In this document: positions 12,601 through 29,638 of the stretch, in pieces
Numbering within the stretch: position 1 is the first letter of the stretch
How the letters are laid out: the number at the start of each line of letters is the position of its first letter
Source of the DNA: Acutalibacteraceae bacterium
Lineage (GTDB): Bacteria; Bacillota; Clostridia; Oscillospirales; Acutalibacteraceae
Direction of reading: 5' to 3'
NCBI GenBank assembly: GCA_045631965.1
Contig: JAZQVR010000008.1
Coordinates: 95,879-127,878 of the forward strand
DNA: 32,000 nucleotides
The notes under the pieces: generated by a model
What the model saw: only the letters and a program-made list of their open reading frames with translations
Database searches by the model: none
Told to the model about the DNA's origin: nothing
Translations under genes and position numbers: made by a program

Positions 12601-12609
12601 CAAAATCGG

Positions 12610-12646
12610 CGGCAGGGTGAAAATTCCCTGCCGTCAATCATTTTTG
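12610..12646 (+). terminator. Terminator after tnpV
   Basis: CGGCAGGG-tgaaaatt-CCCTGCCG followed by tcaatcattttt. Confidence 0.7.
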
Positions 12647-12652
12647 TTCGGA

Positions 12653-12681
12653 TTGATTTTTTATGTAGAAAATAGTATAAT
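12653..12681 (+). promoter_or_regulatory. Promoter of the two-component operon
   Basis: TTGATT-17 nt-TATAAT. Confidence 0.6.
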
Positions 12682-12714
12682 TATTTTACAAACTTGCTGA
12701 AAGGAACTACTGCC

Positions 12715-13428
12715 ATGCTCAATATTGCTATTTGCGATGATGAACTGATTGAAATTGAATATCTGACATCGCTCACACAGGAGTGGGCAAAGGCAACCAA
12801 AACCGCCGTTAACATTTCGGACTTTGCGAGTGCGGAGGCGTTCCTTTTTAAGTATGAGGAAGACAAAAACTTCGATATTCTTCTGCTCGATATTCAGATG
12901 AATGCGATGGACGGCATTGAACTTGCAGAAAAAATCCGTGAAAACAACAACGGTGTACAGATTGTTTTCATAACCGGTTTTCCTGACTATATTTCACGTG
13001 GATATGATGTTTCAGCACTTCATTATCTGATTAAACCCGTTGAAAAGGAAAAGTTCTTTTCGGTTCTTTCAAAAGCATGTGATAATCTGAAAAAAGAAGA
13101 AAAGTTTATTCTAATTTCAGTTGATAACGAGAATCTTAAAATAAATCTAAAAGATATTATTTATATTGAAGCCTTCGGACATTCAAGCTGTGTTGTTTGC
13201 GAAAACGATGAATATAATGTTAAACTCCCAATTTCAGATATAGCCAAAATGCTTGACGGAAGTTTTACTCAATGTCATCGTTCATACATCGCAAATCTTT
13301 ATCACACTGCAAGGATTACAAAGACAGATGTAGTCTTTGATAATGGCAAAAGCATTCCTGTTTCAAGACGAATGTACAGCGATGTTAATATGGCTTTCAT
13401 CAATTTTTACAGAGGTATAAATCAATGA
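12715..13428 (+). CDS. LytTR/AgrA-family response regulator (237 aa)
   Basis: MLNIAICDDE...LLLDIQMNAMDGIELAEKIR receiver domain plus a C-terminal LytTR-like domain (FIEAFGHSSCV...CHRSYIANL). The ATG at 12715 follows AAAGGA. The track start at 12694 is a TTG. Confidence 0.85.
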   Translation: MLNIAICDDELIEIEYLTSLTQEWAKATKTAVNISDFASAEAFLFKYEEDKNFDILLLDIQMNAMDGIELAEKIRENNNGVQIVFITGFPDYISRGYDVSALHYLIKPVEKEKFFSVLSKACDNLKKEEKFILISVDNENLKINLKDIIYIEAFGHSSCVVCENDEYNVKLPISDIAKMLDGSFTQCHRSYIANLYHTARITKTDVVFDNGKSIPVSRRMYSDVNMAFINFYRGINQ

Positions 13429-14168
13429 ATTACTGGATTATTGCCGCAGCAGTTGCAGGTTTTTGGCTTGTAATTTTATTGGCTGTTGTGCTGACAAGAA
13501 GATATATCCGTAACTTTACGGATAAGCGTATAGCCGAATATCAGAACGACCTCATCACAAAGCATTGCGAGGAAGTTCAGAACATTTATAAAACAATGCG
13601 TGGTTGGCGTCACGATTATAAAAATCACATACAGGTTATGCGTGCATCTCTTGAAATGGGCAATCTTACCGAGCTTGGCAACTATCTTGGCGAACTCTCG
13701 GTTGATCTCAATACGGTTGATACTGTTGTTAAAACAGGTAATGTTATGGCAGATGCAATTCTCAACAGTAAACTTGCACTTTGCAAAGCAAGAAATATTC
13801 CTTATGAGGTTACTGCAACGATCCCGCAAGAGTGCAGTGTCAATGATGTTGAACTTTGCGTTATTATCGGCAATCTGCTTGATAATGCTATGGAAGCCTG
13901 TGAAAAAGTCGAGGATAAAACGAAGAGATTTATCCGGGTTTATATCGGAGTTTTCAAAGAACAGCTTTACATAAATGTGACTAACTCGATGATTGGTACT
14001 CCCGTTAAAAGAGGTAAGGCATATAAATCTTCAAAGGGCGAAAATCACGGGTTCGGACTTATGAGAGTTGACAGAATTGCTGATAAATATAACGGTTTTG
14101 TCAATCGTCAGTTTGAAGACGGAGTATTCGGTACGGAAATTATGTTGCCGTTCGTGCAAAGCAAATAA
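13425..14168 (+). CDS. AgrC/HPK10-type GHKL sensor histidine kinase with a single TM helix (247 aa)
   Basis: Overlaps the RR stop by 4 nt. Carries an N-terminal TM helix, an H-box WRHDYKNHIQV, an N-box IIGNLLDNAMEA and a G-box GENHGFGL. Confidence 0.8.
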   Translation: MNYWIIAAAVAGFWLVILLAVVLTRRYIRNFTDKRIAEYQNDLITKHCEEVQNIYKTMRGWRHDYKNHIQVMRASLEMGNLTELGNYLGELSVDLNTVDTVVKTGNVMADAILNSKLALCKARNIPYEVTATIPQECSVNDVELCVIIGNLLDNAMEACEKVEDKTKRFIRVYIGVFKEQLYINVTNSMIGTPVKRGKAYKSSKGENHGFGLMRVDRIADKYNGFVNRQFEDGVFGTEIMLPFVQSK

Positions 14169-14181
14169 CCATTCGTGCAAA
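14151..14181 (+). promoter_or_regulatory. Direct repeats TTCGTGCAAA x2 in 21-bp phasing (candidate LytTR boxes)
   Basis: Identical 10-mers at 14151-14160 and 14172-14181, start-to-start 21 bp, immediately upstream of the ABC genes. Confidence 0.3.
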
Positions 14182-14206
14182 AGCAACCTTTTTAGGTTGC
14201 TTTTTT
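14181..14206 (+). terminator. Hairpin plus T-run between the kinase and ABC genes
   Basis: AAGCAACCT-tttt-AGGTTGCTT followed by tttt. Confidence 0.55.
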
Positions 14207-14231
14207 GGTATGTTAATATTGGGTGATAAAT

Positions 14232-16049
14232 ATGGGTAAATCTAAAAAGAAGAAACGGTATAATCTGTTTCAAAATTTAAAATTCGTATTCAAGCATATT
14301 CATTCGTGGGATAAATGGGCTTTGCCCGTCTATTTCGCAAAAACTCCTGTTGATATTGTTTATTCGTTGGGACAGACCTATTTTGCTCCGATTATAATTG
14401 CACTTGTTGAAAGTGGCAAAAGCGTAGGGATTATTCTTGGCGTAACATTTTTGGTTAGCGGTATTCTTGCTTTATCCGCAAAGTACAATGAGCGATTTAA
14501 TGCCATAACAACGAATAAACGTCAAGATATCAGCAGACGATTTGATTTAATACTCGGCGAAAAGATTATGAGTATGGATTATGAAATCCTTGAGGGACCA
14601 GTTGGTAAAAATAAACTTCAAAAAGCCAAAAACTCTCTCGGCAACGAAGGCGTATATGTTTTTCTTGATTACTTATTTAAACTAATAACCGCTTTAGTTG
14701 GTTTCACAAGTTTTGTAATTATCATTTCAACACTCAATCCGTGGATTGTTGTTGTTCTCTTTATCTCCTTTGTATTACCCCTTTTAGCGGATTTGGTTGC
14801 CGATAAACTTGTAAACGGCACTAAAGACAAGAGAGCTGAAATAGACAGGCATCTCAACTATATGACCAAAAGCTCTCGTGATTTCTATATTGCAAAGGAT
14901 ATCAGACTTTACAATATGAGAGATTGTCTGCAAAGAATGAGCGAATATTTCATCGGCGAAAAGAAATTTTGGACAAACAAGGTTTATCTTTATTATTTCA
15001 TATCCGATGTTGTAAGAACGGTTATGGGGATTGTTGTCAGAGGCGGTGCATACGCATATCTGATTTATATGTGCCTTACCTCTGATATAAGCGGTTCCGA
15101 GCTTGTTCTCTACATCACATCAATTCTGACTTTCGGAACCTGGATTTCAAATCTTGGTATGAGCATTAACTCTGTTCATCAGCTTAATATCAGTATGTGT
15201 GATTACAGAGAATTTCTTGATATTGAGAACACAATGGAGAACGAAAACGGTCTGCCGATTCCAAGTGAACAACCTTATGACATAAAGATAAAAGATCTGA
15301 GTTTCACTTACCCCGGTAGTGAAAATGCTGTTTTACAAAATATAAACCTACATATCGCACCCTGCGAAAAGCTGGCTATTGTCGGCTTGAATGGTGCGGG
15401 TAAAACAACACTTGTTAAACTTCTTTGCGGCCTTTACAGACCGATTCATGGCGAAGTGCTTCTCAATAATACAAATATTTTTGAATTTAACAGAGATGAC
15501 TATTATTCTGTTATTTCCGCTGTTTTTCAAGACGCAAGGTTTATGCCGATAAGCATTGCTGAAAACATTTCAATGCAGCCTATTGAAAAATCAGACATTG
15601 CAAGAATTAACGATTGCGTCAAACTTGCAGGACTTTCAGACAAAATTGCAAGCCTCAAAAATGGTATTGAAACAAAGCTCGTGAAGAACGTAAATGATGA
15701 TGCTGAAGAACTTTCGGGCGGAGAAATGCAAAAACTCCTGCTTGCAAGGGCAATTTATAAAAATTCGCCGATAATTATTCTCGATGAACCTACTTCTGCA
15801 CTTGACCCGATTGCAGAAAATGAAATGTATCTGCGATATAGTGAGCTTACTGAGGGCAAGACTTCTGTCTATATTTCTCACAGACTTTCATCAACAAGAT
15901 TCTGCGACAGGATTATTCTTCTTGACAACAACACTATTGTTGAAACAGGAACTCACGATGAACTTATGGCTATCGGTGGCAAGTATGCCGAGATGTTCGC
16001 AATTCAAACCAAATACTACGAAAAGGCAGGTGAAAAGAATGAAGATTAA
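14232..16049 (+). CDS. ABC exporter, fused permease-ATPase, subunit 1 (605 aa)
   Basis: N-terminal TM domain. Walker A GLNGAGKTT, signature LSGGEMQK, Walker B IIILDEPTSALD, H-loop YISHRL. GGGTGA lies before the ATG at 14232. Confidence 0.9.
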   Translation: MGKSKKKKRYNLFQNLKFVFKHIHSWDKWALPVYFAKTPVDIVYSLGQTYFAPIIIALVESGKSVGIILGVTFLVSGILALSAKYNERFNAITTNKRQDISRRFDLILGEKIMSMDYEILEGPVGKNKLQKAKNSLGNEGVYVFLDYLFKLITALVGFTSFVIIISTLNPWIVVVLFISFVLPLLADLVADKLVNGTKDKRAEIDRHLNYMTKSSRDFYIAKDIRLYNMRDCLQRMSEYFIGEKKFWTNKVYLYYFISDVVRTVMGIVVRGGAYAYLIYMCLTSDISGSELVLYITSILTFGTWISNLGMSINSVHQLNISMCDYREFLDIENTMENENGLPIPSEQPYDIKIKDLSFTYPGSENAVLQNINLHIAPCEKLAIVGLNGAGKTTLVKLLCGLYRPIHGEVLLNNTNIFEFNRDDYYSVISAVFQDARFMPISIAENISMQPIEKSDIARINDCVKLAGLSDKIASLKNGIETKLVKNVNDDAEELSGGEMQKLLLARAIYKNSPIIILDEPTSALDPIAENEMYLRYSELTEGKTSVYISHRLSSTRFCDRIILLDNNTIVETGTHDELMAIGGKYAEMFAIQTKYYEKAGEKNED

Positions 16050-17913
16050 AAATCTTGTTGAAATTGTCAAAAAGGATTTTAACACCACAAAAAGAGCGAT
16101 AAAACTTATTCAGACCTTTACTCCGAATTATTTTCTCCATTCTTTTCTGTTTGCTTTTGATTTGGCAGCAGCACAGTTTATCGGATATTATCTTGCTGCT
16201 GAAATTACCGATGAAGTAACAGGTGGCAAAGATATAAATAAGATGGCTATAATGGTTGCGATTATGGTTATATCGGAGCTTGCACTGGTGCTTCTGAGTA
16301 AGTATTCGTGGCGAAGAATAAGGGTAAATGAAATCATTACTCAGCAATGGGAAGAAATCTATCTTAATAACAAAAGTTTCTCTATGGACTACAAGAATAT
16401 GGAAGACCCTGAAATAAGAGCCAAAAGGCAAGCTATTGTTGATAACCGTAATTTAGGTGGACTTGCATATCTTGTTTCAAGATTGTCACACATAATGCGT
16501 AATGTAATTAATATCGTATTCAGCATCATTATGGTTTCCGATATGTTTTTCAGACACTCCGACAAAACTTTAAGCGGAATAGTCGGTTTTGCTGATTCGT
16601 GGGTAGCATCTTTGTTGCTCGGCGTTGTAATAATGGTTTCATGTGTTGTTTCTTTTGTGAGTATTCACTTAGTTGAAAGCAACAATTACAAAATAAACAA
16701 GAAGATTTCTTCAGCAAAAAAGATATATTCTTATTATCTCGGTGATTATCTTGATGACAGTAAGGCCTGCAAGGATGTTCACATTTTCAATCAGCAAGAA
16801 CTTATCAATGATGCTTCGGATAAAATCCACTCAAACTGGATATCTTTAATTAAGGAAAAAACAGATTTTTGGAAGAAACACACTGAAAAAACAATTGTTC
16901 TTGAATATATCATACTCGGATTAATTTATACCTTTGTCGCCTTAAAAGCGATTGCCGGAACCTTTGGAATCGGTAGTTTTGTTAAATATGCAACCTGTAT
17001 TCAAAAGCTACTGTGGAACACAAACGATTTTGGTGCAATGCTTTCAAGAATGCATACACTCAACGAGTATATTGAAGATTTCTTTGAATATGTTGATATT
17101 CCCACCGAAATGCACTACGGCACTATTCCCACAGAAAAAAGAATGGATAACAAATATGACATTGAATTTCATAATGTCAGTTTTAAATATCCGAATACCG
17201 ATAAATATGCTATCAAAAATCTCAACCTTAAATTCAAGGTTGGTGACAGAATCGCAGTTGTCGGTATGAATGGTAGCGGTAAAACGACAATGATAAAATT
17301 GCTTTGTCGTCTATATGACCCGACAGAGGGATATATAACTCTCAATGGAATAGATATTCAGAAATACGATTATGAAGATTATCTGAAATTGTTTTCTGTT
17401 GTGTTCCAAGATTTCAAGTTGTTTTCATTTTCTGTTGCCGAAAATGTTGCAGCAAGTGTTGATTATGACGAAGAAAAGGTTTGGTCAGCACTTGAAAAAG
17501 CGGGTATGTTTGAAAGAGTACAGGCTATGCCGAAGGGACTCAAAACCCCCATTTACAAGGATTTTGAAGAAGACGGTGTTGAAATCTCCGGTGGTGAAGC
17601 ACAGAAGCTCGCTATCGCAAGAGCACTCTATAAAGATGCAGCCTTTGTCATCCTCGATGAACCAACCGCATCACTCGACCCCATTGCAGAACACGAAATA
17701 TATTCGCGTTTCAATGATATGGTTAAGGACAAAACAGCGGTTTATATCTCGCACCGTTTGTCATCCTGCCGCTTCTGTGACAGAATCCTTGTATTCGATA
17801 ACGGACAACTGATTCAGGATGGCTCTCACGAAAACCTTCTTGAAAACACTGGTGGAAAATACAGTGAACTTTGGAATGCTCAGGCACAGTATTACGCTGA
17901 AAATAAAGTATAA
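16039..17913 (+). CDS. ABC exporter, fused permease-ATPase, subunit 2 (624 aa)
   Basis: The ATG at 16039 (MKIKNLVEIV) overlaps the upstream stop, with AGGTGA upstream. Walker A GMNGSGKTT, ISGGEAQK, FVILDEPTASLD, YISHRL. The track start at 15784 is an out-of-context extension inside the upstream gene. Confidence 0.9.
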   Translation: MKIKNLVEIVKKDFNTTKRAIKLIQTFTPNYFLHSFLFAFDLAAAQFIGYYLAAEITDEVTGGKDINKMAIMVAIMVISELALVLLSKYSWRRIRVNEIITQQWEEIYLNNKSFSMDYKNMEDPEIRAKRQAIVDNRNLGGLAYLVSRLSHIMRNVINIVFSIIMVSDMFFRHSDKTLSGIVGFADSWVASLLLGVVIMVSCVVSFVSIHLVESNNYKINKKISSAKKIYSYYLGDYLDDSKACKDVHIFNQQELINDASDKIHSNWISLIKEKTDFWKKHTEKTIVLEYIILGLIYTFVALKAIAGTFGIGSFVKYATCIQKLLWNTNDFGAMLSRMHTLNEYIEDFFEYVDIPTEMHYGTIPTEKRMDNKYDIEFHNVSFKYPNTDKYAIKNLNLKFKVGDRIAVVGMNGSGKTTMIKLLCRLYDPTEGYITLNGIDIQKYDYEDYLKLFSVVFQDFKLFSFSVAENVAASVDYDEEKVWSALEKAGMFERVQAMPKGLKTPIYKDFEEDGVEISGGEAQKLAIARALYKDAAFVILDEPTASLDPIAEHEIYSRFNDMVKDKTAVYISHRLSSCRFCDRILVFDNGQLIQDGSHENLLENTGGKYSELWNAQAQYYAENKV

Positions 17914-17997
17914 AATCATAATAGAACATAAAACAGCAAGATGAATTTAATGAATACATAGGATGTATCTAAATTAATAATTAAATAAAAATCACAG

Positions 17998-18032
17998 CCC
18001 ACATCGTAGCATACAGCTAAGGTGCGGGTTTT
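17998..18032 (+). terminator. Imperfect hairpin plus TTTT after the ABC operon (inverted relative of the 21737 hairpin)
   Basis: CCCACATCGTAGC-ataca-GCTAAGGTGCGGG (13 positions, 2 mismatches) followed by tttt. Confidence 0.45.
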
Positions 18033-18270
18033 GTGCGTCATTATATTGAAAAAAACAAGCGTTTTTGTCGAAATTTACAACGTTTTTGCAGGTAGCCTTG
18101 AACATAAAACTAGATTGCTGTACTTTTAATATGTATAGATATAATTTAGTTGGCAAAATCAACAAAATATCTGCGTAACAACTGTCATTCCGACAATTTT
18201 CAAAAACATTAAAATTTTTATGTTACTTTTTGAGATTTTCAACACTTTATATATAGAGAATAAGTATTAA

Positions 18271-19182
18271 TTACAGTTTATTTCTGTAATTATACTTATT
18301 AAGCACTTGTTTCTTTCTCTTGGTTGTTACCTCAGTGTATATCTCCGTTGTCGCAACACTACTGTGACCAAGGATTTCTTGAACGGAGCGTAAGTCTGCA
18401 CCGTTTGCAAGAAGATTAGTAGCAAATGTATGCCGCAAGTAATGTGGTGTCGACTTCTCATTAATTCCACAGGCTCTTTTTGTTGAATTATAAATATATT
18501 CTATACCGTGTATGCTTAGCTGTTCACCAAAACGGTTTACAAATATCTTATCTGTGTTGGTTGGTCGGTTTTTACGGATTTTCAGCCACCGGGTAAGATT
18601 GTTCCAAGTGTCGTTACAGGATATATAGATAAGTCTCTGTTTTCTCCCCTTGCCGTGAATGAGAATAGTTCGTTCAGAAAAAATCACATCACTAAGTGCG
18701 ATGTTTGAAGCCTCGGCTATTCTTATGCCGGTACTAATGAGTACATCAATCAAAGCAAGGTTGCGATAATTCTTCCACAAGTCAAAAGCGGTTGTCTCAT
18801 TTTCGGCACAGACGGTAAGATAAGTGAGCAGTTTTGAGGTTTCTTTTACCGCTAAAGTCTTTGGGAGCCGTCGCTCTTTCTTATAGCGAAAGTGGTGATT
18901 TTGATAGTAGTTTACATCAGTATAACCTTGCTCATAAAGAAAACCGAAAAACATTTTCAGTGTAATTAACTTTCGGCAAATTGTGTTATCTTTGAGCTTT
19001 CGCTCTTTGGATAACATTTGCACATATTTCAGGATTACCGTTTCATCAAGCTCATCGCTTCGCAGAAACGCCTGAAAATCTTTTAAATCCGAACGGTAAG
19101 CTATTATCGTTTTATCGGATAAATTTTTTGTAGATTGGATGACTTGTATAAATTCATCACTCGCTGTTTTTATACTTTTCAT
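18271..19182 (-). CDS. Tyrosine site-specific recombinase, XerC/XerD-like (303 aa)
   Basis: N-terminal SAM-like core-binding domain. Catalytic signature TGIRIAEA (Arg), HYLRHTFAT (His-x-x-Arg), LGHSSVATTEIYTEV (His, Tyr). GAGGAG lies before the ATG. Confidence 0.9.
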   Translation of the reverse strand: MKSIKTASDEFIQVIQSTKNLSDKTIIAYRSDLKDFQAFLRSDELDETVILKYVQMLSKERKLKDNTICRKLITLKMFFGFLYEQGYTDVNYYQNHHFRYKKERRLPKTLAVKETSKLLTYLTVCAENETTAFDLWKNYRNLALIDVLISTGIRIAEASNIALSDVIFSERTILIHGKGRKQRLIYISCNDTWNNLTRWLKIRKNRPTNTDKIFVNRFGEQLSIHGIEYIYNSTKRACGINEKSTPHYLRHTFATNLLANGADLRSVQEILGHSSVATTEIYTEVTTKRKKQVLNKYNYRNKL

Positions 19183-19255
19183 TTGATCACTCCTCGAAAT
19201 TTTGAAAATGTGTTCGCAAATTCATTTTAACAGAATTTCGAGAAGAGTTATATAA

Positions 19256-19280
19256 ACTTACAATAACTACTTATTATTGT
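19256..19280. repeat. Left copy of a perfect 25-bp inverted repeat
   Basis: acttacaataactacttattattgt. Its exact reverse complement is at 21076-21100. It contains an internal dyad ACAATAA-N7-TTATTGT. Confidence 0.95.
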
Positions 19281-19327
19281 AGAGTGAAAAGGCTTACTAA
19301 TTTAATTGATTAATTGGAGGGTGTAAT

Positions 19328-20353
19328 GTGGACAATATTGTTGAATCTAATTTTTGTATAAAGAGATTTACATCTTCAAAAGACAAGGACTTTGTTAAAG
19401 CTCTTATGTTATACAATGATACTATTCCTGTAGACACTAAAACCAGTTCAAATGAAATAATTTATTTTGCTGATCATTGTTCAATGCAACCCAAAAGAAT
19501 TATGTATTTTTTTGGACTATATTGTGACAAACATCTAGTTGGATTTGTTGAAACTGGATATCTGCTGACAACAAAGACTATAATTATTGATTACATAGTA
19601 CTTAAAGAAGGCTACCGATTAAATAGTATTTTTTATCCTTTATTTAGTCTTATACAACGATATTTTTCTGAAAATATGATTGATTATGACTATATTGCCA
19701 CTGAGGTTAGCACCAAATGTCCAGAACAATCTGTTGATTCAGAAAGTTTCTTTTCCAAGAAAATGTTGCAGATGGAAGATTTTAGAATTGCAGAAGTACT
19801 GTATCGACAGCCTAGACTGGGGTTAGATAATTTTGAAAGTAATTTTGATTTTCAATTAATGATAAAATCAAAACAACCCATACCTATGATAAAAAAAGAA
19901 ACATATCTTTCGATTGTGTATGATATTTATTTTGAACATTATTATCCATGGTATGAGGTTGCAGACAAATCACGAAGTGCTGATTATAGGAAACACTTGG
20001 AAACCGAATTTGAGCAAGTTAAATTAAAAGCAGAACAAGTGTCAGGAGATATAATTTTGTCAAATCAAAGTATCGCATGTGCTTATTACAAATCGTCTGA
20101 TTGTCATTATAATACAAGTACAGCAGGATTTGTTCCAAGTAAAAAAACAAAGGAAGCTCGTAAATGGATATTTGGGATAGGTATACCTTGTGTAACGATA
20201 GGTGCATTCCTCATTTCGATGGCAGCCTACTATTTGTTGAAAAAATCAGATATTCAGCCTGATAAATTTGCGGGTCTGTTTGCTGCAATATCAGCGACAT
20301 TAACAGGTATAATGACATTAGCTTTTTCAGCAATCACAAAATCAAAATCATAA
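19328..20353 (+). CDS. Hypothetical protein with a GNAT-fold-like N-terminal region and two C-terminal TM helices (341 aa)
   Basis: GTG start with GGAGGG 6 nt upstream. The segment RIMYFFGLYCDKHLVGFVETGYL...IIIDYIVLKEGYR resembles GNAT beta4-alpha3 but lacks the Q/RxxGxG/A motif. C-terminal hydrophobic helices WIFGIGIPCVTIGAFLISMAAYYLL and FAGLFAAISATLTGIMTLAFSAI. Confidence 0.55.
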   Translation: MDNIVESNFCIKRFTSSKDKDFVKALMLYNDTIPVDTKTSSNEIIYFADHCSMQPKRIMYFFGLYCDKHLVGFVETGYLLTTKTIIIDYIVLKEGYRLNSIFYPLFSLIQRYFSENMIDYDYIATEVSTKCPEQSVDSESFFSKKMLQMEDFRIAEVLYRQPRLGLDNFESNFDFQLMIKSKQPIPMIKKETYLSIVYDIYFEHYYPWYEVADKSRSADYRKHLETEFEQVKLKAEQVSGDIILSNQSIACAYYKSSDCHYNTSTAGFVPSKKTKEARKWIFGIGIPCVTIGAFLISMAAYYLLKKSDIQPDKFAGLFAAISATLTGIMTLAFSAITKSKS

Positions 20354-21052
20354 CTTTTTACATAATAAGATAGTGTTATGGGCTAATAAATACGATATTG
20401 GTTTAAACAAAATATCATAATGTGCATATTTTCCAGATTTTTCTTCTTGATGTAAAATTCGATTAGCCAACGCACTAATACAGTGAAATCTTTTTTGTCT
20501 TATGACTGATAGTCCACACTCATCTAAAAGTAGAGAAATCATCTTTTCAGAATATAGCCAAAGAGTATGAGTATGTCCCATATAATCATATTGTTGCTTA
20601 GTGGAAATTTTCCCATATTCAGATGTAAAGAACAGTTCTCCAGTATTGCTACGTTCAAATTCAAGAACCAAGTATCCACCTTTTTTCATTACTCGAGAGA
20701 ATTCTTTTATACTTTTAATCGCATCACAATAGTTTAGGACACTCCCTACGCAAATAATTGCGTCAAATACCTCATTTTCAAACGGTAAGTTTTCAATAGA
20801 AGCAACAGTATGTTTTTCAAACTTGCAAATTAGATTTTCGGCTACATCAACATGATGACAAACCCCTTTGATATCATATACGGTACCACCAGAACCAGCA
20901 TTAAGATAAAAACTTTCGGAAGACAATTTAGGAGCCAAATACCTTTTTATAAAGTTAATAATAATTTCATGGGTATAATTATACCATCTGTTATTTTCAG
21001 GCCACACGCTATCCATTGATGAATAGATATCTTTAGGGTTTTCAAAATTCAT
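20348..21052 (-). CDS. Class I SAM-dependent methyltransferase (234 aa)
   Basis: Motif I YLNAGSGGT, then FDAIICVGSVLNY and KKGGYLVLEF. The ATG at 21052 is preferred over the GTG at 21061. Its stop codon directly abuts the stop codon of the convergent 341-aa gene (20348-50 and 20351-53). Confidence 0.75.
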   Translation of the reverse strand: MNFENPKDIYSSMDSVWPENNRWYNYTHEIIINFIKRYLAPKLSSESFYLNAGSGGTVYDIKGVCHHVDVAENLICKFEKHTVASIENLPFENEVFDAIICVGSVLNYCDAIKSIKEFSRVMKKGGYLVLEFERSNTGELFFTSEYGKISTKQQYDYMGHTHTLWLYSEKMISLLLDECGLSVIRQKRFHCISALANRILHQEEKSGKYAHYDILFKPISYLLAHNTILLCKKL

Positions 21053-21075
21053 GTTTATCACTTCCTAATACATTA

Positions 21076-21100
21076 ACAATAATAAGTAGTTATTGTAAGT
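21076..21100. repeat. Right copy of the perfect 25-bp inverted repeat
   Basis: acaataataagtagttattgtaagt is the exact reverse complement of 19256-19280. Confidence 0.95.
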
Positions 21101-21131
21101 AACTTTTCAAAGCAAAGGAACGATATTACAA

Positions 21132-21683
21132 TTGGATATAAAAGAATTAACTGAAGAAGGATTAGGGTTTGAATCAGGCTCAACCAATCAAAAACACAAA
21201 ACCGACTTGACAGGAAAAGTCAGAGAAATAAAAAAAGACACACTTCCTGAAGAAGTAGTGTCAAATTTCCTAAATGGTGAATATAAAACATATATAACGA
21301 CTGATAAGGTAGTCTTGTACCGTACATACGGCAGAGGATACAGCAAAAACAAGGGAGCAACTTGGAATGGCGGTTATGCATCAACCGAATTTGCAGAATC
21401 AAGGATTGATGTAAAAATAAGACTTGCACTAAAACCTGAATGGCTAAATACCAGACTTGTTGAAGAAAAAATACTTGTACCTATTGGAACAAAAATTCAT
21501 GTGGGATTAGTCGCACCGGTTACACTCAATACAGGTAATGTATTGGCAGGTGGCGCAGAACAGGTTTTGTTGCCAAGAAATTGGCCGAAAGAATGGATAA
21601 TTGGTTATAGAGAAGTTACATCAAAACCTCTAATGGATTATCCTGAATTTTTTTCAACACCACCAAAAGATAATCGTGAATAA
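21132..21683 (+). CDS. Hypothetical protein with a faint NAD-utilising toxin (TNT/ART-like) signature (183 aa)
   Basis: TTG start with AAAGGAA upstream. Carries VVLYRTYGRGYS...GGYASTEF...RLALKP...VPIGTKIHVGLVAP...AGGAEQVLLP. The resemblance to the xRyG...GGxxQ pattern of TNT-type domains is from memory only. Confidence 0.4.
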   Translation: MDIKELTEEGLGFESGSTNQKHKTDLTGKVREIKKDTLPEEVVSNFLNGEYKTYITTDKVVLYRTYGRGYSKNKGATWNGGYASTEFAESRIDVKIRLALKPEWLNTRLVEEKILVPIGTKIHVGLVAPVTLNTGNVLAGGAEQVLLPRNWPKEWIIGYREVTSKPLMDYPEFFSTPPKDNRE

Positions 21684-21736
21684 ATTAAATAAAAACTACA
21701 TTCCGAAACAGTCAAAAACAATACTGTAACAGCAGC

Positions 21737-21771
21737 AATCCGCACCATAGCAATCGGCTACGATGCGGATT
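21737..21771. repeat. Hairpin between convergent genes, homologous to the tRNA-Pro terminator
   Basis: AATCCGCA-cc-aTAGC-aatcg-GCTAc-ga-TGCGGATT. The flanks match 8062-8109 (see finding). Confidence 0.6.
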
Positions 21772-21777
21772 CTTCAT

Positions 21778-22647
21778 TTATTTCTTTACAACAGGAACCC
21801 ATATTTCGCTACGGTAATCGGGGCTTCCCATATTACCCTCGGTATAAGCCTCAATATCCATTTCATAAGTAGGCTCATAGCCTGATGTCGGGAAGAATTC
21901 CGAAACAATTTTGTGCCACATATCCTGCATAGCTTTCGGCATTGCACCTTTGCATTCAAACACTGCCCATGTTCTTGCAGGAATCGTGTTTCTTCTGAAG
22001 CCTTCGGGAGTCTCAGTTTTTTCATCACATTTTGCTGCGATTGAATAATCAAACGTCTTTGCGTTTTCGGGAAGATTTCCGTAGCACACACCAAATATGA
22101 AGGTTTTGTCTGTCGTTAATTCTGTTAATCTCTTAACAGTTCCGTCTTTGTGAGAACGTGTCCAGAAATCAGGAATACTCTTGGCATTTTCTGAATTTTC
22201 AACAGTATGTGCTTCAACCTTTTCAATAATATCAAAAGCCTCTTTTTCTACAATTTTGTAGTCCATTATATTGCCTCCGCTTAATGCAATTTTCACAGTA
22301 AGGCGAGAAAAAGATTTGAGTTTTGAACCATCTTTTTTTGCTTCAGATGGTGTTATGCCGTGAAATCTTGTAAAAGCTCTTGTGAAACTTTCAGGACTTT
22401 CATATCCGTATTTAAATGCAATATCAATTACTTTTGAATCAGAAGCACACAGTTCATTGCCGGCAAGTGTTAGCCGTCTGTTTCTGATATAGTCTCCCAA
22501 AGTAATCCCACACAAAATACTGAAAATTCTTTGAAAATAGAATTCCGAACACGCTGCTTCTTTTGCAACAAGCTCCATATCTATTTCATCAGTTAGATGA
22601 TTTTCGATATAATTAATTGCATTCTGTATGCCCGTAATCCAATCCAT
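21778..22647 (-). CDS. AraC-family regulator with a GyrI-like effector-binding domain (289 aa)
   Basis: AGAGGTGA lies before the ATG at 22647 (MDWITGIQNAINYIENHL). AraC HTH GYESPESFTRAFTRFHGITPSE. C-terminal GyrI-like half ending SPDYRSEIWVPV. Confidence 0.85.
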   Translation of the reverse strand: MDWITGIQNAINYIENHLTDEIDMELVAKEAACSEFYFQRIFSILCGITLGDYIRNRRLTLAGNELCASDSKVIDIAFKYGYESPESFTRAFTRFHGITPSEAKKDGSKLKSFSRLTVKIALSGGNIMDYKIVEKEAFDIIEKVEAHTVENSENAKSIPDFWTRSHKDGTVKRLTELTTDKTFIFGVCYGNLPENAKTFDYSIAAKCDEKTETPEGFRRNTIPARTWAVFECKGAMPKAMQDMWHKIVSEFFPTSGYEPTYEMDIEAYTEGNMGSPDYRSEIWVPVVKK

Positions 22648-22784
22648 ATGCTCACCTCTTTGTGTGATTACATTATAAAGCAAAAGTAATGATAGTTCCT
22701 GACTTTTTATGCTCAGTATTGTATGGATATATTTTAACACACTTTATCTGTTGTTTCAATCAATGTGATATTCATTTTTTGTTA

Positions 22785-22813
22785 TTGAAAAGGCATACTA
22801 TTTATGCTATAAT
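22785..22813 (+). promoter_or_regulatory. Near-consensus promoter for the leader and APH-like gene
   Basis: TTGAAA-17 nt-TATAAT. Confidence 0.7.
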
Positions 22814-22861
22814 AAATTCAAATAAATCTGCAAAAGCAGATTCCGAAAGGAGAACAATTGT

Positions 22862-22894
22862 ATGAAAGTTTTTTATGAGGTAATCGTATCTTAA
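22862..22894 (+). CDS. Candidate 10-codon leader peptide MKVFYEVIVS
   Basis: AAGGAG lies 9 nt upstream of the ATG. It sits inside a structured 5' region of about 300 nt that ends in a terminator. Confidence 0.4.
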   Translation: MKVFYEVIVS

Positions 22895-23030
22895 ACTGAA
22901 TATGTGGTGCAAACGATTATCGAGGCATAGGCCTCTATGTTGTTGTGCCGTTTTAAAGTAACCTTTCGTGAATACTATAACTTTCGGTTGTAGCACACTT
23001 TAGGGTGTGTTATTTTTATGCATAAAATCA

Positions 23031-23077
23031 GCCGTAGGAAGTACCCACTAATGAGGGTTGCTTTCTACGGCATTTTT
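23031..23077 (+). terminator. Intrinsic terminator (attenuator) 48 nt upstream of the APH-like start
   Basis: GCCGTAGgAAG...CTTtCTACGGC (11 positions, 1 mismatch; inner ACCC/GGGT stem) followed by attttt. Confidence 0.7.
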
Positions 23078-23124
23078 GCGCTTGTTTTCAGATATTGTTA
23101 ACATAAATATTTGGAGGAATAAAA

Positions 23125-24087
23125 GTGAATAAAAATATAATAGAAAATAATTTTAATTTGATAGTATGTGATATACAACTTCTTGATAAACATTTTGGTA
23201 CTGAGCTTTATTTAATTAACACAGATGTCGGTAAATACATAGTTAAAATTCTGCCTTTGTATATGGAAAATGTAAAAAATGAAGGTGAAGTTACCGAATA
23301 TCTTTATAATAACGGACTTAAAGTTGCAAGATTTATGAAAAGCAACGATGACGCTTATGTGGTAAAAACACCTGAATTTCAGTTTACCGTTCAACAGTTT
23401 ATTGAAGGAGAATCACTACCGGTGAATACTGCACCTGATTGGTTTATCTGCAAATCTGCCGAGTTTCTTGGTCAAACAGTATTGTTGTTGAAAGATTATG
23501 ATGGGTTATCGTTACGATTTGGCAAAGACTTCTTTTCAACTAAAACAGTTCGCAGGAAAATATGGCAGTATAAAAAAGAGCTTGTCAGAGCGAAAAAAGC
23601 AAAAGATGTGAATATTATACCTATTTGGGAAGAACAAATCCGGCATCTCAAAAGAATCTCAAAATTCCGTATTGATACTAAAAAACTGACTTATGCCAAT
23701 TCGCACGGTGATTATCACATAGGTCAAGCTATCATACATAACAATGATTTCACGGTTGTTGATTGGAGTTCAGCTTGTCGATTGCCGATTTGTTTGGATG
23801 TTATAACATCTTATGTATTCTCAAGTTCCACCTGTGCTGCAGGTGAAATAGATGCAAACGGACTGAAAAAGTACATCAGTCAATTTACAGAAAAGTTTCC
23901 GTTAACGGAATATGATATAAAAACAATGCCTTATGTTCTGTATTATTGGCACTGTATGTGTAATTATCGTCCTGATGAACTCTGTGATATTCCTGACAGT
24001 TATAAAGCTATTGCAAAACTCATAAATAACTTTTTGAACTGGCTTTATGATAATGTTGAAGAATTGACGGAAGAACTAATTAAATAA
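23125..24087 (+). CDS. APH-family (aminoglycoside/macrolide phosphotransferase-like) small-molecule kinase (320 aa)
   Basis: GTG start with GGAGG 7 nt upstream. Brenner-type catalytic loop SHGDYHIGQAI and VVDWSSA. N-lobe lysine context YIVKILP. Confidence 0.7.
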   Translation: MNKNIIENNFNLIVCDIQLLDKHFGTELYLINTDVGKYIVKILPLYMENVKNEGEVTEYLYNNGLKVARFMKSNDDAYVVKTPEFQFTVQQFIEGESLPVNTAPDWFICKSAEFLGQTVLLLKDYDGLSLRFGKDFFSTKTVRRKIWQYKKELVRAKKAKDVNIIPIWEEQIRHLKRISKFRIDTKKLTYANSHGDYHIGQAIIHNNDFTVVDWSSACRLPICLDVITSYVFSSSTCAAGEIDANGLKKYISQFTEKFPLTEYDIKTMPYVLYYWHCMCNYRPDELCDIPDSYKAIAKLINNFLNWLYDNVEELTEELIK

Positions 24088-24100
24088 GTAAATTCACTCC

Positions 24101-24135
24101 GAGGTGTCGACTAAAAACCGACACCTCAATTATTT
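24101..24135 (+). terminator. Terminator after the APH-like gene
   Basis: GAGGTGTCG-actaaaaac-CGACACCTC (9-bp perfect stem) followed by aattattt. Confidence 0.7.
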
Positions 24136-24155
24136 AGAAAAGTTTTGAAAAACTA

Positions 24156-24184
24156 TTGACATTGGTAAACATTTGTTCTATAAT
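24156..24184 (+). promoter_or_regulatory. Perfect consensus sigma-70 promoter
   Basis: TTGACA-17 nt-TATAAT. Confidence 0.8.
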
Positions 24185-24190
24185 CATAAG

Positions 24191-24472
24191 CACAATTAAA
24201 TAAACGACTTTAAATCGTGCAAGCAGAGCAGTACCTTTACAGGCTGAAAATCTTCTAAGCGCCGTATGAAGTCGAATGTACATATCTTTCAAAAGAGCAA
24301 CACACAGCAAGAACCTACATATCAGTGTTGCAGAGACGAAAGAACCCACTTTCTTAATCGCGTAAGCGGGGCAGGACTCTGTTTTCAGAGCTGAAAAACC
24401 ACCAAGCACCGTAACGAAAGTCGATTGGATGTGGGATAACTATGTCCATTCGAGTTCGTACGGTGCTTTTTT
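24191..24472 (+). ncRNA. Candidate structured non-coding RNA of about 280 nt (class unknown)
   Basis: It lies between the consensus promoter and a 9-bp-stem terminator (AGCACCGTA...TACGGTGCT + TTTTT). Internal hairpins include GCAACAC/GTGTTGC, CGC-GTAA-GCG (GNRA) and GAAAG/CTTTC. Two half-modules are related to each other. The only plus-strand ORF is 42 codons with no SD. Confidence 0.5.
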
Positions 24473-24598
24473 GTGTTTTAAACGGATTTTTCAAGAGCTT
24501 AATGAAATAATTACCCTGCCGACAAAATTAACCCCTTTACAGAGGCGCAAATCGTCAAAAATCAACCTGAATCACTGCAAATAAAGGAGATTGATATT

Positions 24599-25486
24599 AT
24601 GGAAAACTTAAAAATTGACAAGGAATTTGAAATGCTCATACCGGCACTTACAATTGATGAGTATGAACAGCTGAAAAGCAACATCTTATCTGAAGGTGAA
24701 ATATTCAACCCCATTTTTACTTGGAATGGATATATCATCGACGGACATCACCGCTATCATATTCTGTCTGAACATCCGGCGCTTAAATACAAGATTGTTG
24801 AAAAGGAGTTTTCATCAAGATTTGAAGTGTTGTCGTGGATTTGCAATAATCAGCTCGGCAGAAGAAACCTTACACCCGAAAACAAGAAGTATCTTATAGG
24901 CAAAAGATATGAAGCGGAGAAAATGTCTCATGGTGGTGCAAGACGTGGTGCTGAATTTTCAACTGACCAAAATAGTCTGTTGAAAAACGGATTGACAACA
25001 AGACAAAAGATTGCAAAAGAAACAAAAACCAGCGAGGGATATGTTGCCCGAGCCGAGCGGTTTGCAAAAGGTGTAGACGCAGCAGAAGAAGCTGTTCCGG
25101 GCATTAAAGAAGAAATACTTTCAGGAAAAATAAAGAAGCCTGAAGGTGTAATAGCAGATATTGCAAAAGCTCCTGAGGAAGAAAGAAAATCTCTTACTGC
25201 AAATTTGAGATTGGTACAAAAATATGAAAAGCCTACACCTGCCATGATTCAAACTATAAGATCAATATGTGCAGAAATGAAAGAGTTGGATACAGCCGGC
25301 GATGTTGAAAGCTTTTTAGAAACATTAGAACTGGATGTGGAAAATCATATCGTATCATATAAATTCACTTTTTTTCATAATCCGAAACTTTTGAGTGCTG
25401 AGTATTTTCAAAGAACAATGGCGGTTATGCAAAAAATGATAGACTATATCGCAAGCATCAAGCCCGAGGAGTGTGATGAAACCTGA
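24599..25486 (+). CDS. ParB N-terminal-domain (ParB/sulfiredoxin-like) protein (295 aa)
   Basis: AAAGGAGA lies before the ATG. Carries LIPALTIDEYEQLKSNILSEG...NGYIIDGHHRYHI. Confidence 0.7.
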   Translation: MENLKIDKEFEMLIPALTIDEYEQLKSNILSEGEIFNPIFTWNGYIIDGHHRYHILSEHPALKYKIVEKEFSSRFEVLSWICNNQLGRRNLTPENKKYLIGKRYEAEKMSHGGARRGAEFSTDQNSLLKNGLTTRQKIAKETKTSEGYVARAERFAKGVDAAEEAVPGIKEEILSGKIKKPEGVIADIAKAPEEERKSLTANLRLVQKYEKPTPAMIQTIRSICAEMKELDTAGDVESFLETLELDVENHIVSYKFTFFHNPKLLSAEYFQRTMAVMQKMIDYIASIKPEECDET

Positions 25487-25533
25487 ATATTGATATTGTT
25501 TACGAGGAACCGCAAAGCAAAATCTTCTTCAAA

Positions 25534-25842
25534 ATGCCGAAGGTGCTGTTTACAGACGAATATAAGGATTTATCTGCAGAGGCGAAGCTGCTTTATGGAT
25601 TGATGCTCGACAGAATGCAGTTATCCGCAATAAACGGCTGGTGTGATAAAAATGGTGAGGTCTTTATTTTCTATACTATTGCCGAAACAAGTGAAAAACT
25701 CGGTTGTGGTCATGACAAAGCAACAAGGCTGCAGCGTGAGCTTGAAAAACACAATTTTCTCCGCCGTAAATATCAAGGCAAGGGCAGACCTGCGAAGCTC
25801 TATGTTTTACCTATTCCGAAAACACGCATCAGGTCACCGTAA
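25534..25842 (+). pseudogene. RepA_N-type replication initiator, N-terminal fragment only
   Basis: MPKVLFTDEYKDLSAEAKLLYGLMLDRMQLS...FIFYTIAETSEKLGCGHDKATRLQRELEKHNFL matches the RepA_N pattern. The conserved FFK-PK motif starts upstream of the ATG with no canonical start codon. The ORF stops at 102 aa, whereas from memory full-length members are about three times longer. Family-like residues (NKTE.SKTE) continue in another frame. Confidence 0.6.
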
Positions 25843-26407
25843 AAGTCGCAAGTAATAAGACTGAGTAGAGTAAGACTGAGATATATACCAACCGAGAAGA
25901 AGAAAAATATTCTTTAATTAAGTTAGTAATAACTTTAAGTATATATGGTGTATTGGCTGAATGCGAAAAACTGATGAATACGCATCATTTCTTCTTCGGC
26001 TCGTAAAATACCGAATAGAAATTGATTGAATGATATCGGCATTATTATTGAGATTTCCATTTGAAAAAAGCTAATTTTCAACGGTTTGAACCGAGGAAAG
26101 TTAGCTAAAAACGGCACTTTTGAAAAAACAAATTTTTTCATAGGAATAAAAATCGAAATTTGGCAAATCAGACGATAGAAATTGGCAAAACGAACAGTAC
26201 CCCGTCAGCAAAATTTCCATTAAAAATCGGTGCATTCTGCCCATAGTACTAAGAGCGGAATGCACTCGAAAATGGCTCTGTTGAAAAATATAAATTTTCA
26301 ACTGAATTGAATTTTTATTATTTTTTCACTAATTTCCATTATGGGGCGGTTTTGACAAAAAGAAACTGCCCTCACAAATGTGAGAGCAAGTATAGTTTAG
26401 TTTTTAA

Positions 26408-26860
26408 TCATAATATTTTTGTCTTAAGAACTAAATTGGATGCTTCTTTGTATCCAAGTTTTCCATAGAAATGATTATGCAAATCATCATTTACCGACTG
26501 TAACTGAATGAGCATTGCACCTTCTTTTTTTACACATTCTTCTAACTGTTTCATAAATACTGTTCCGTAACCTTTGTTTTGCAACTGTGAGGCAACAACA
26601 ATTTCAACCAAGTCATACGCAAACCAATCATCATATTGCTCAAAATAGCCAATAGCAAATGCAACGATATCATTTTTGCTTTCCCAAATTAAACAATATG
26701 AATCCTCACGGCTCCAAACCTGATGAATACGTTTATATGTAGTTTCAGTTGTCCATTCAGCATCTTCATGATTGTTATAGTATTCGATATAAAGCGAAGC
26801 AACACTATCAATATCTTTCTCAGCCATTTTTCTGGGTGTGGTTTTCAATTTTCCAAACAT
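26408..26860 (-). CDS. GNAT N-acetyltransferase (150 aa)
   Basis: VVASQLQNKGYGTVFMKQLEE (Q/RxxGxG/A acetyl-CoA motif) and HFYGKLGYKE. Confidence 0.8.
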   Translation of the reverse strand: MFGKLKTTPRKMAEKDIDSVASLYIEYYNNHEDAEWTTETTYKRIHQVWSREDSYCLIWESKNDIVAFAIGYFEQYDDWFAYDLVEIVVASQLQNKGYGTVFMKQLEECVKKEGAMLIQLQSVNDDLHNHFYGKLGYKEASNLVLKTKIL

Positions 26861-26869
26861 AAATAAGCC

Positions 26870-27235
26870 TTACTGTTCATTTTTATAAGCATACCCGAAA
26901 TCTATCGGAGGTAAAGTAACAGAAATATATATGAATTCGGTATCACCATCATTTAACAAACCGTGAATATCATTATCTGCAAATCTGACAACATCACCTG
27001 ATTTAAATTCTAATTCTTTATCATCTGCAAGAAGTAATTTGCCTGTTCCTTGAATAGCATACCAAATCTGCTCTGAAGTATCGTGTTTGTGTCTTGGTTG
27101 ATTTGCTCCGATTTTAATATGAACTTCTGTTATTGTGACTCTTTCGCTCTTTGAATTTTCAGGATTAATAAGCTGTTTTGAAACAACACCGGGATTTGAT
27201 AGTTCTTTTATGTTTTCTCTTTTTATAAACTCCAT
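26870..27235 (-). CDS. Cupin-domain protein (about 121 aa)
   Basis: PRHKHDTSEQIWYAIQGTG...GDVVRFADNDIHGLLN (cupin motifs 1 and 2). The ATG at 27235 is 1 nt after the upstream stop. The track alternative is the GTG at 27247. Confidence 0.75.
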   Translation of the reverse strand: MEFIKRENIKELSNPGVVSKQLINPENSKSERVTITEVHIKIGANQPRHKHDTSEQIWYAIQGTGKLLLADDKELEFKSGDVVRFADNDIHGLLNDGDTEFIYISVTLPPIDFGYAYKNEQ

Positions 27236-27236
27236 A

Positions 27237-27698
27237 TTAAAACTCACATTCCATTATATCGTTTTCTGATTTGAAACCATTTCTTGAATACCAATTAACA
27301 GAATTATCACTCGGCCATACAAAGATTAATTCACAGCCCTTTTCTTTCAGATAATTCTTGATGTATGAAAGTAATTCTGTACCGTAACCTTTGTTTCTAT
27401 ATTCTTTCATTGTATGAACATTGGTAAGGTAAGCAATATATGCCCCACTTGCTTTAGGCTTAGGCACTTTATCAATAATTGCAACATACATTGCAGAAAT
27501 TACAATTCCGTCTTGCTCCAAAACAAAAATTGTATATGTAGAATCATTTTTCAGAAATGTGATGTAATCATCTATGAAACTCTGCTTATCTGCACCAACA
27601 ATATTTGTTTCACCATAGGTTATATCATCTTCTGCAGAATGTTCCCATTTCATTTCTGCTAATTGTAAAAAATCTTTTTCTTTAGCTAATCTAATCAA
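27237..27698 (-). CDS. GNAT N-acetyltransferase (153 aa)
   Basis: TTG start with AAGGGTGA 6 nt upstream. Carries YRNKGYGTELLSYIKNYLKEKG and WYSRNGFK. Confidence 0.8.
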   Translation of the reverse strand: MIRLAKEKDFLQLAEMKWEHSAEDDITYGETNIVGADKQSFIDDYITFLKNDSTYTIFVLEQDGIVISAMYVAIIDKVPKPKASGAYIAYLTNVHTMKEYRNKGYGTELLSYIKNYLKEKGCELIFVWPSDNSVNWYSRNGFKSENDIMECEF

Positions 27699-27717
27699 AG
27701 TGATTCACCCTTAATAA

Positions 27718-29233: not shown

Positions 29234-29261
29234 AAACCGTGGTATCGTCTTTGCTAGCATT

Positions 29262-29281: not shown

Positions 29282-29302
29282 GCTCAGAAGCAGAAGAAAG
29301 GA

Positions 29303-29632: not shown

Positions 29633-29638
29633 AAATTT

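Follow-up and report, generated by a model that had tools for sequence, protein, structure and literature searches.

A two-gene cassette between inverted core sites, probably flipped by the neighbouring tyrosine recombinase, in an Acutalibacteraceae bacterium

What is the role of a perfect 25-bp inverted repeat that encloses two genes meeting stop to stop, next to a gene for a tyrosine recombinase? Such a locus lies at 19256-21100 of a 32,000-nucleotide stretch of DNA from an Acutalibacteraceae bacterium (contig JAZQVR010000008.1; the whole stretch is called the window here). An earlier note on this DNA had offered three readings of the 1.8-kb block, namely inversion by the recombinase, a small mobile cassette, or a shared operator. 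According to our computational analysis, the block is very probably (we put it at roughly 0.8) a promoterless two-gene cassette that is inverted by the adjacent Xer-like tyrosine recombinase via conservative site-specific recombination. The locus belongs to a large family, apparently not yet described, of cassettes in gut Firmicutes that can be flipped and swapped; many of these cassettes carry genes for anti-phage immunity.

The inverted repeat and the orientation of its cassette

The repeat ACTTACAATAACTACTTATTATTGT spans 19256-19280 and recurs as its exact reverse complement at 21076-21100 (25 of 25 positions match). Even with up to 3 mismatches allowed, the window contains no third match, and 0 were expected from 100 shuffles; the inverted repeat is no chance occurrence. 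Each copy contains the dyad ACAATAA-N7-TTATTGT. The two enclosed genes converge and their stop codons abut (TGA of the methyltransferase at 20348-20350, TAA of the 341-aa open reading frame (ORF) at 20351-20353), and no terminator is predicted between them. The recombinase gene lies on the left of the block and diverges from it, while the 183-aa ORF lies on the right. Directly outside the repeats, the flanks read TATAA on the left (19251-19255) versus AACTT on the right (21101-21105). Our results confirmed the repeat, the dyad and the convergent layout as the earlier note had described them, and all of its factual points hold. The features of the locus are the following.

19256-19280, plus strand: left (recombinase-proximal) core site, with outer arm ACTTACAATAA at 19256-19266, spacer CTACTTA at 19267-19273 and inner arm TTATTGT at 19274-19280
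21076-21100, minus strand: right (distal) core site, exact reverse complement of the left site
19328-20353, plus strand: cargo gene A, 341-aa membrane-anchored protein of predicted GNAT fold (AlphaFold model, Foldseek)
20348-21052, minus strand: cargo gene B, class I S-adenosylmethionine (SAM)-dependent methyltransferase of 234 aa (Pfam Methyltransf_11, public gene calls)
21132-21683, plus strand: 183-aa toxin-like protein of predicted NADase/ADP-ribosyltransferase (ART) fold, outside the distal site (fold matches of the structure model)
18271-19182, minus strand: Xer-like tyrosine recombinase of 303 aa, the presumed invertase (Pfam Phage_integrase, E = 1.2e-36)
19183-19255, no strand assigned: recombinase-proximal control region, with a hairpin/palindrome over the recombinase Shine-Dalgarno (SD) sequence and candidate promoter elements

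The orientation present in the window places the GNAT gene on the recombinase side. We looked up the exact 341-aa protein and the methyltransferase in public assemblies. The window orientation was found in ERZ27317341 and ERZ28594304, with hundreds of bases of flank. A contig of DRR848587 reads AAGTT, the repeat and then the GNAT side, AAGTT being the reverse complement of the right flank (21101-21105), and a contig of SRR24653867 reads TATAA, which is the left flank (19251-19255), followed by the repeat and the methyltransferase side. These are the junctions expected after a clean inversion. In addition, a Logan contig of SRR27361827 is 1845 bp long and corresponds exactly to 19256-21100, and a contig of SRR34955586 begins exactly at 21100.

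Logan assemblies are de Bruijn graphs with k = 31 (PMC12424806). Since this k exceeds the 25 bp of the repeat, the repeat alone cannot create a branch in the graph. When a single orientation was simulated, the region came out as one unitig with no break. Simulation of both orientations gave an inner unitig of exactly 19256-21100 and four 35-nt junction unitigs reaching 5 nt beyond the repeat. This is the pattern seen in the Logan contigs, which argues that both orientations are present.

We also scanned the recombinase protein against one genome per species and kept the best 80 loci, at 63-96% identity (related loci are given by L number). Identical or near-identical cassettes are flipped between identical flanks in different samples (L080 versus L081). 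The cassettes of L100 and L101 are likewise flipped between identical flanks, and their recombinase proteins are identical. A third case, with the same flanks, sets L088-L091 against L092, L093 and L095-L097. Cargo families are found in both orientations relative to the recombinase across species, and the longest contig is cassette-sized (1.77-1.95 kb) for 37 of the 109 homologs of the 341-aa protein. The search of public assemblies and related genomes thus found both orientations, in the inverted junctions as in the L080/L081 and L100/L101 pairs; both orientations of the 19256-21100 cassette exist in nature.

Inverted repeats can confuse assemblers and can recombine homologously, and the apparent inversions could then be assembly artefacts or products of RecA-dependent recombination between the repeats. 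We consider this extremely improbable. The repeat is shorter than k (31 for Logan and, as inferred from the contig names, apparently 141 for the k141-named contigs), so that k-mers resolve the orientation, and a single orientation gave no break in the simulation. A length of 25 bp is also at or below that needed for efficient exchange by RecA. Both explanations would leave the conserved arms and covarying spacers of the sites, described below, without explanation.

Core sites and recombinase

Most of the 80 loci belong to metagenome-assembled genomes (MAGs) of Clostridia (Acutalibacteraceae, Ruminococcus and others) from the guts of ruminants and other animals. In nearly all of them, ACAATAA-N7-TTATTGT lies 73-95 nt upstream of the recombinase start, and a partner site lies inverted 1.6-7 kb further out. 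The arms are almost invariant across about 80 loci, with an outer arm that reaches 11 bp (ACTTACAATAA) in many of them. The spacer varies, 27 types being found across loci. Among the 112 sites of the 52 loci that hold at least two, 104 have a partner with the exact reverse-complement spacer in the same locus, and for the other 8 the explanation is the end of a contig, two mismatches in the arms of the partner, or a chance look-alike. Many MAG contigs stop at the inner edge of a site. On a metagenome contig with recombinase DNA 84% identical to that of the window, the 25-mer is perfectly kept alongside a different cargo (a small membrane protein and an Abi-alpha protein). A more distant recombinase lineage, 32% identical, has different arms (GGATAAT-N5-ATTATCC).

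Strand exchange by tyrosine recombinases requires identical central regions in the partner sites. The covarying spacers therefore point to a strand-exchange region rather than to an operator, which is under no such constraint. Judging from its sequence, each repeat copy is a tyrosine-recombinase core site of the dif/lox type, with two inverted arms around a 7-nt asymmetric spacer. The recombinase would bind the inverted arms (ACTTACAATAA outside, TTATTGT inside), and strands would be exchanged in the 7-nt spacer CTACTTA. As the two sites point in opposite directions, recombination would flip the cassette and not delete it. Inversion, the first of the three readings, is thus borne out by both orientations, by the conserved site motif and by the covarying spacers.

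The third reading, a shared operator, supposes that a repressor, or the recombinase acting as a regulator, binds both copies and co-regulates two divergent promoter regions with no rearrangement. Each copy does have a dyad and lies between divergent genes; moreover, the sites overlap any cargo promoter, and protein binding there probably affects transcription. An operator gives no reason, however, for spacers that are exact reverse complements within a locus yet vary among loci, both orientations are observed, and contigs break exactly at the sites. As the sole explanation, a shared operator is contradicted by the inverted junctions and the covarying spacers, and we regard it as very unlikely.

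The gene at 18271-19182 had been described as XerC/D-like, in agreement with our analysis: the protein matches PF00589 Phage_integrase (E = 1.2e-36) and has an N-terminal SAM-like domain. In an alignment to E. coli XerD (1a0p), the six catalytic positions R, K, H, R, H and Y are all conserved, which indicates that the neighbour of the cassette is a competent recombinase. It scores below the cut-offs of the XerC model (228.5 vs 335 bits) and the XerD model (220.5 vs 330 bits), and below those of XerA and XerS too. Its profile is that of a Xer-like enzyme which is neither XerC nor XerD proper, and its relatives are named only "tyrosine-type recombinase/integrase" in databases.

An inverted repeat covers the SD sequence of the recombinase gene. 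With arms of 15 nt each (19190-19204 and 19231-19245), it is longer than the 9 nt previously noted, and as RNA it has a predicted folding energy of -16.4 kcal/mol (z = -2.8). This palindrome is imperfect and encloses candidate -10 boxes of both divergent promoters. By inspection of the sequence, an extended -10 box, TGTTAAAAT (19224-19232, minus strand), faces the recombinase, and a weak candidate promoter faces the cassette (TTGAAA at 19202-19207, 17 nt, TTTTAA at 19225-19230). The region 19183-19255 is almost invariant in about 35 loci, and the palindrome shows U-G or C-A variation on one arm only. No known RNA family of Rfam matches the hairpin, the sole Rfam match in the window being a tRNA. 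The recombinase and the 183-aa protein are not on record in the exact-protein look-up, plasmid and phage collections gave no match to near-identical window DNA, and the exact 25-mer had no match in viral contigs.

Cassette exchange, cargo and expression

Comparison of the loci showed homology to end precisely at the sites. On both sides of the cassette, L013 shares synteny with the window at 88-93% (8277-14230, 17080-19281 and 21054-24482), and between its sites it carries an aminotransferase and a pentapeptide-repeat protein, not the window cassette. The right flank is common to L008, L049, L010, L014, L027 and L044 only from 21076 or 21077 on, and the left flank of L022 matches the window only up to 19280. 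In L046, the window cassette (87% identity over 19258-21100) has flanks unrelated to those of the window; this locus has two modules in tandem, whose spacers differ, and the cassette is the second of them. Recombinases that are 96% identical to each other adjoin unrelated cargo, and two recombinase lineages, each with its own site arms, serve the same pair of GNAT and methyltransferase. These alignments indicate that whole cassettes have been replaced.

In L010, L015, L016, L027, L030, L033, L034, L036, L045, L049 and L055, a second palindrome (GATAAT-N5-ATTATC) lies about 15 nt inside each ACAATAA site, at both cassette ends. It is of the type used as a site by the 32%-identical recombinase lineage (L087, L088). 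The nested sites suggest that cassettes pass between the two recombinase systems. Tandem modules with different spacers are present in L045, L046 and L073, the outer module having no recombinase of its own; this arrangement would imply action in trans and a spacer-based insulation between modules.

The repeat is perfect and bounds a discrete block found in different contexts, as the terminal inverted repeats of a small non-autonomous transposon would. We give this explanation scarcely any credence, since no transposase lies between the repeats and the flanks TATAA and AACTT form no target-site duplication. Different cassettes also occupy exactly one position in syntenic backbones, and the repeat has an arm-spacer-arm form and always accompanies the recombinase. 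From the second reading, a mobile cassette, the exchangeable block stands (L046, L013) and the transposon does not.

A different view of the same comparisons is that the locus serves mainly as a docking platform, where mobile elements naturally exchange whole two-gene cassettes through the recombinase, much as with pdif modules or integron cassettes, and where inversion comes about as an inevitable side effect of having inverted sites. It is favoured by the shared backbones with different cassettes, by the flanks that match only up to 19280 or from 21076 on (L008, L049, L022), by the unrelated flanks of L046 and the unrelated cargo of near-identical recombinases, as well as by the tandem modules, the pair served by two lineages and the second-type sites nested in many cassettes. 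However, homologous recombination in the conserved flanks could also give exchange, and neither a circular nor a free form of the cassette was observed as an intermediate. Within samples, inversion is also frequent enough to break assemblies repeatedly, which suggests selection for flipping itself. We hold a primary role in exchange to be a serious possibility, somewhat short of an even chance; it is compatible with inversion of the cassette by the recombinase.

The genes of the window cassette were analyzed further. The 341-aa protein is predicted to have a GNAT domain (about residues 1-190), then a helical region and two C-terminal hydrophobic helices. Its AlphaFold model (predicted local distance difference test (pLDDT) score of 83.5) matches GNAT acetyltransferases in Foldseek with a probability of 1.0 and a target-normalised TM-score of about 0.7, and this predicted fold bears out the earlier guess of a GNAT-like protein with two transmembrane helices. 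The methyltransferase matches Pfam Methyltransf_11 (E = 1.9e-9); it starts with ATG at 21052 in public gene calls (234 aa), and the mechanical ORF extends to GTG at 21061. The 341-aa protein has 109 homologs, which are paired with the methyltransferase in every context read.

Outside the distal site, the model of the 183-aa protein (pLDDT 80.5) has as its best fold match Tne2, a NADase of the type VI secretion system (probability 1.0, target-normalised TM-score 0.73, E = 3e-3), with further matches to Tse6 and Rhs1-CT. The previous guess that it is toxin-like thus fits a predicted NADase fold of the Tne2/Tse6 type. Neither the 341-aa nor the 183-aa protein has a match in Pfam, NCBIfam or PADLOC. 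About 31 nt separate the start of the 183-aa gene from the distal site, and 11 other loci have a homolog that starts outside this site at a distance of 31-38 nt; such a constant position points to a conserved backbone partner of the module in the window lineage. No obvious immunity gene follows this ORF, the next gene being a convergent AraC/GyrI regulator.

The layout of the cargo is well conserved. A simple convergent pair of gene sets makes up 49 of 54 cassettes, and of the 55 convergent junctions, 47 have overlapping 3' ends or a gap of at most 5 nt; such ends leave no room for a terminator between the genes. Cargo genes start 0-90 nt inside the sites. In the window cassette, the methyltransferase ATG is 23 nt and the GNAT start 47 nt from the nearest site, distances that leave no room for a promoter inside the cassette. 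Four exceptions to the convergent rule are L014, L044, L045 (first module) and L037, where a third gene by the proximal site points outwards. It encodes a decarboxylase dependent on pyridoxal phosphate in the first three and is an uncharacterised 268-aa ORF in L037.

Elsewhere, the cargo includes ThsA (SIR2-STALD; PADLOC E = 6.6e-143) facing a TIR/ThsB protein, TIR proteins facing radical SAM proteins or STAND NTPases, and Abi-alpha, LmuA-, Dsr2- and viperin-like proteins. Pentapeptide-repeat proteins face ATP-grasp/radical SAM, aminotransferase or decarboxylase genes, and methyltransferases and glycosyltransferases are also found. The GNAT and methyltransferase cassette of the second recombinase lineage (L088-L092) lies beside Hachiman (HamA and a helicase) and a YgjP-like gene, a defence island.

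A cultured strain, Paenibacillus sp. IHBB 10380, carries a 44%-identical recombinase on a 17-kb plasmid (NZ_CP010977.1; L102, 7705-11300). After the recombinase gene, a perfect 30-bp inverted repeat surrounds a convergent, overlapping gene pair. The repeat has the core TAATAA-CTATGAA-TTATTT and includes a ribosome-binding site. This plasmid module offers a tractable model.

With regard to expression, the flip would pick which of the two convergent genes, membrane GNAT or methyltransferase, is read in sense from the fixed control region on the recombinase side. The other cargo gene would stay silent, with antisense read-through passing across it and possibly on into the NADase-like gene. This choice of gene by an outside promoter is what we infer from the layout. 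In a lineage with recombinases of 63-70% identity, a near-consensus promoter, TTGAAT-17-(TG)TATAAT, often with the extended TG, is directed into the cassette, its end lying 17 nt short of the proximal site. No consistently placed promoter is present in the distal flank of this lineage, where many loci have a terminator-like hairpin. There, the flip should choose the cassette strand that is read, the other gene being crossed by antisense transcription. In the window lineage, the equivalent promoter position holds the conserved hairpin and the extended -10 box facing the recombinase. A consensus promoter scan showed no excess over shuffled sequence, with 26 sites against a shuffle mean of 21.3 (sd 5.4).

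Two further promoter candidates were discarded. A promoter within the site on the methyltransferase side (CTTACA, 17 nt, first inner bases) would start its transcript inside the ribosome-binding site of this gene, and a -35 box in the distal flank (TTGAAA) paired with TATTAT in the site has a spacing of 20 nt, which is too long. The 183-aa gene runs with the read-through direction; that it may be transcribed across the cassette is speculation.

Several observations weigh against this picture. The link between the recombinase and inversion is an association, in that the motif accompanies the recombinase family in about 80 loci, and the junction evidence in DRR848587 and SRR24653867 is short (5 nt), though as predicted in both. 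Neither the consensus scan nor our own scoring gave a convincing promoter facing the cassette in the window lineage, weak candidates being all that was found. In the 32%-identical lineage, transcription runs towards the cassette from both outer flanks, so that inversion would swap promoters and not switch a gene on or off; in this lineage, as in the Paenibacillus plasmid, it is the recombinase gene that reads into the cassette. Finally, some cassettes hold both genes of ThsA and TIR/ThsB systems on opposite strands, which does not fit a strict either/or switch. Thoeris defence needs both ThsA and ThsB, and with the two genes head-on such a switch would never express both. Three possibilities can be envisaged: a -10-like element in the site gives a low level of the far gene, the flip tunes the ratio of the two proteins, or exchange is the selected function.

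Around the module, two related terminator-like hairpins (32 nt, 78% complementary; window 17999-18030 and 21737-21768) bracket the recombinase, the cassette and the 183-aa gene. Window 1-8100 includes a fall in GC content near 7000, from about 45% to about 31%, with a tet(M/W)-type ribosomal protection GTPase (4731-6776) on the high-GC side and tRNA-Pro(cgg) (7976-8052) about 1 kb past the drop, within the low-GC stretch. This drop looks like an island junction. Window 9436-17913 and 22000-31700 make up the rest of the low-GC stretch, which looks like a mobilisable element. We found there a pair of a HAD hydrolase and SIR2_2, TnpV, a two-component system of the LytTR type and two ABC ATPase/permease fusions, as well as an AraC/GyrI regulator, an APH-like kinase, RepA_N, three GNATs with a cupin, ParB and a MobA/VirD2 relaxase.

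Relation to known systems and wider meaning

Taken more broadly, the loci may belong to a Firmicutes-wide flip-cassette platform, in which a dedicated Xer-like recombinase and inverted sites, with the 7-nt spacer as an address, would form a landing pad and let promoterless convergent cassettes with overlapping 3' ends be exchanged between mobile elements and continuously flipped under fixed outside promoters. We put forward this generalisation tentatively, as one that is rather more likely to fail than to hold; many of the cassettes are immune modules (ThsA/ThsB, TIR-STAND, TIR-radical SAM and Abi-alpha). If true, the platform would rank beside integrons as a cassette system, with inversion as its basis, and it would give gut Clostridia a phase-variable and swappable immunity. 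The window lineage may then couple the cargo gene that is "on" to a constant downstream NADase-like effector.

The design differs from most catalogued gut inversions, which flip promoters or reshuffle gene halves, whereas here whole genes would flip in a conserved layout with a dedicated recombinase. Its spread covers dozens of uncultured species of gut Clostridia and at least one cultured Paenibacillus plasmid with a similar module. Innate immune genes (Thoeris, TIR, SIR2, STAND, Abi) would become phase-variable. In metagenome assemblies, such loci fragment into cassette-sized contigs and are hidden from MAG-based surveys. With short symmetric arms and a programmable 7-nt spacer, the system is also a candidate for inversion or cassette-exchange engineering in Firmicutes, and the 27 natural spacer variants appear orthogonal within one locus. 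A two-gene immune system placed head-on, with no terminator, on a flipping segment remains a puzzle.

In the literature outside subscription journals, we found no description of this recombinase family, of convergent whole-gene flip cassettes or of inversion-controlled Thoeris, an absence that is no proof. One 2026 paper goes no further than to suggest that defence genes might be regulated by DNA inversion (PMC13552941).

The nearest known system is that of the Acinetobacter pdif modules, where inversion occurs, reversibly, between site pairs sharing an identical central region (PMC9947245, citing Blackwell & Hall 2017). In both cases, discrete modules are bounded by inversely oriented Xer-type sites and one module is found in several contexts. 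Here, however, the sites have symmetric arms and a 7-nt spacer, while pdif sites have asymmetric XerC/XerD half-sites and a 6-nt central region. The cassettes described here have a dedicated adjacent recombinase, whereas pdif modules rely on the chromosomal XerC/XerD, and they keep a fixed convergent, 3'-overlapping and promoterless layout. Their hosts are gut Clostridia and Bacilli and their cargo is largely immunity-like, in contrast to the antibiotic resistance cargo of pdif modules.

The overall plan recalls the G segment of phage Mu and the C segment of P1, where the invertase gene is adjacent, outside the segment, and a single fixed promoter beyond the segment reads one or the other of two convergent gene sets. 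Like these, the window locus is a segment of a few kb with short inverted repeats and an invertase gene adjacent to it. Gin and Cin, which depend on an enhancer and on Fis, are serine recombinases. The enzyme found here is a tyrosine recombinase with dif/lox-like sites, and not a member of the serine resolvase/invertase family to which Gin, Cin and Hin belong. Unlike in Mu and P1, no constant 5' coding part lies outside the segment, and the cargo is exchangeable and does not encode tail fibres.

In the RecV- and Fim-type switches of C. difficile and E. coli and in the invertons detected by PhaseFinder, a tyrosine recombinase flips a segment between short inverted repeats and creates population heterogeneity (PMC7446863, PMC9286219, PMC6083910). 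Those segments are about 0.15-0.7 kb long and carry the promoter or regulatory element, whereas in our reading the promoter is outside and whole genes flip. The hsdS shufflons of type I restriction-modification systems (PsrA/CreX) and other gene-altering inversions are tyrosine-recombinase inversions that give alternative states in defence loci (PMC7096588, PMC7672463, PMC9881135). Their repeats lie inside coding sequences and gene halves are reshuffled; here, the repeats are intergenic and the genes complete and unrelated.

Chromosomal integrons are known to hold defence genes. An integron in the strict sense was ruled out, as the recombinase scores 103.8 bits with the integron-integrase model TIGR02249 (cut-off 265 bits) and the sites are simple double-stranded dyads. 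The likeness lies in promoterless exchangeable cassettes, a tyrosine recombinase and an outside promoter. The cassettes described here differ from those of integrons in that they have no attI/attC, carry two inverted double-stranded core sites each, and would have inversion as their main reaction.

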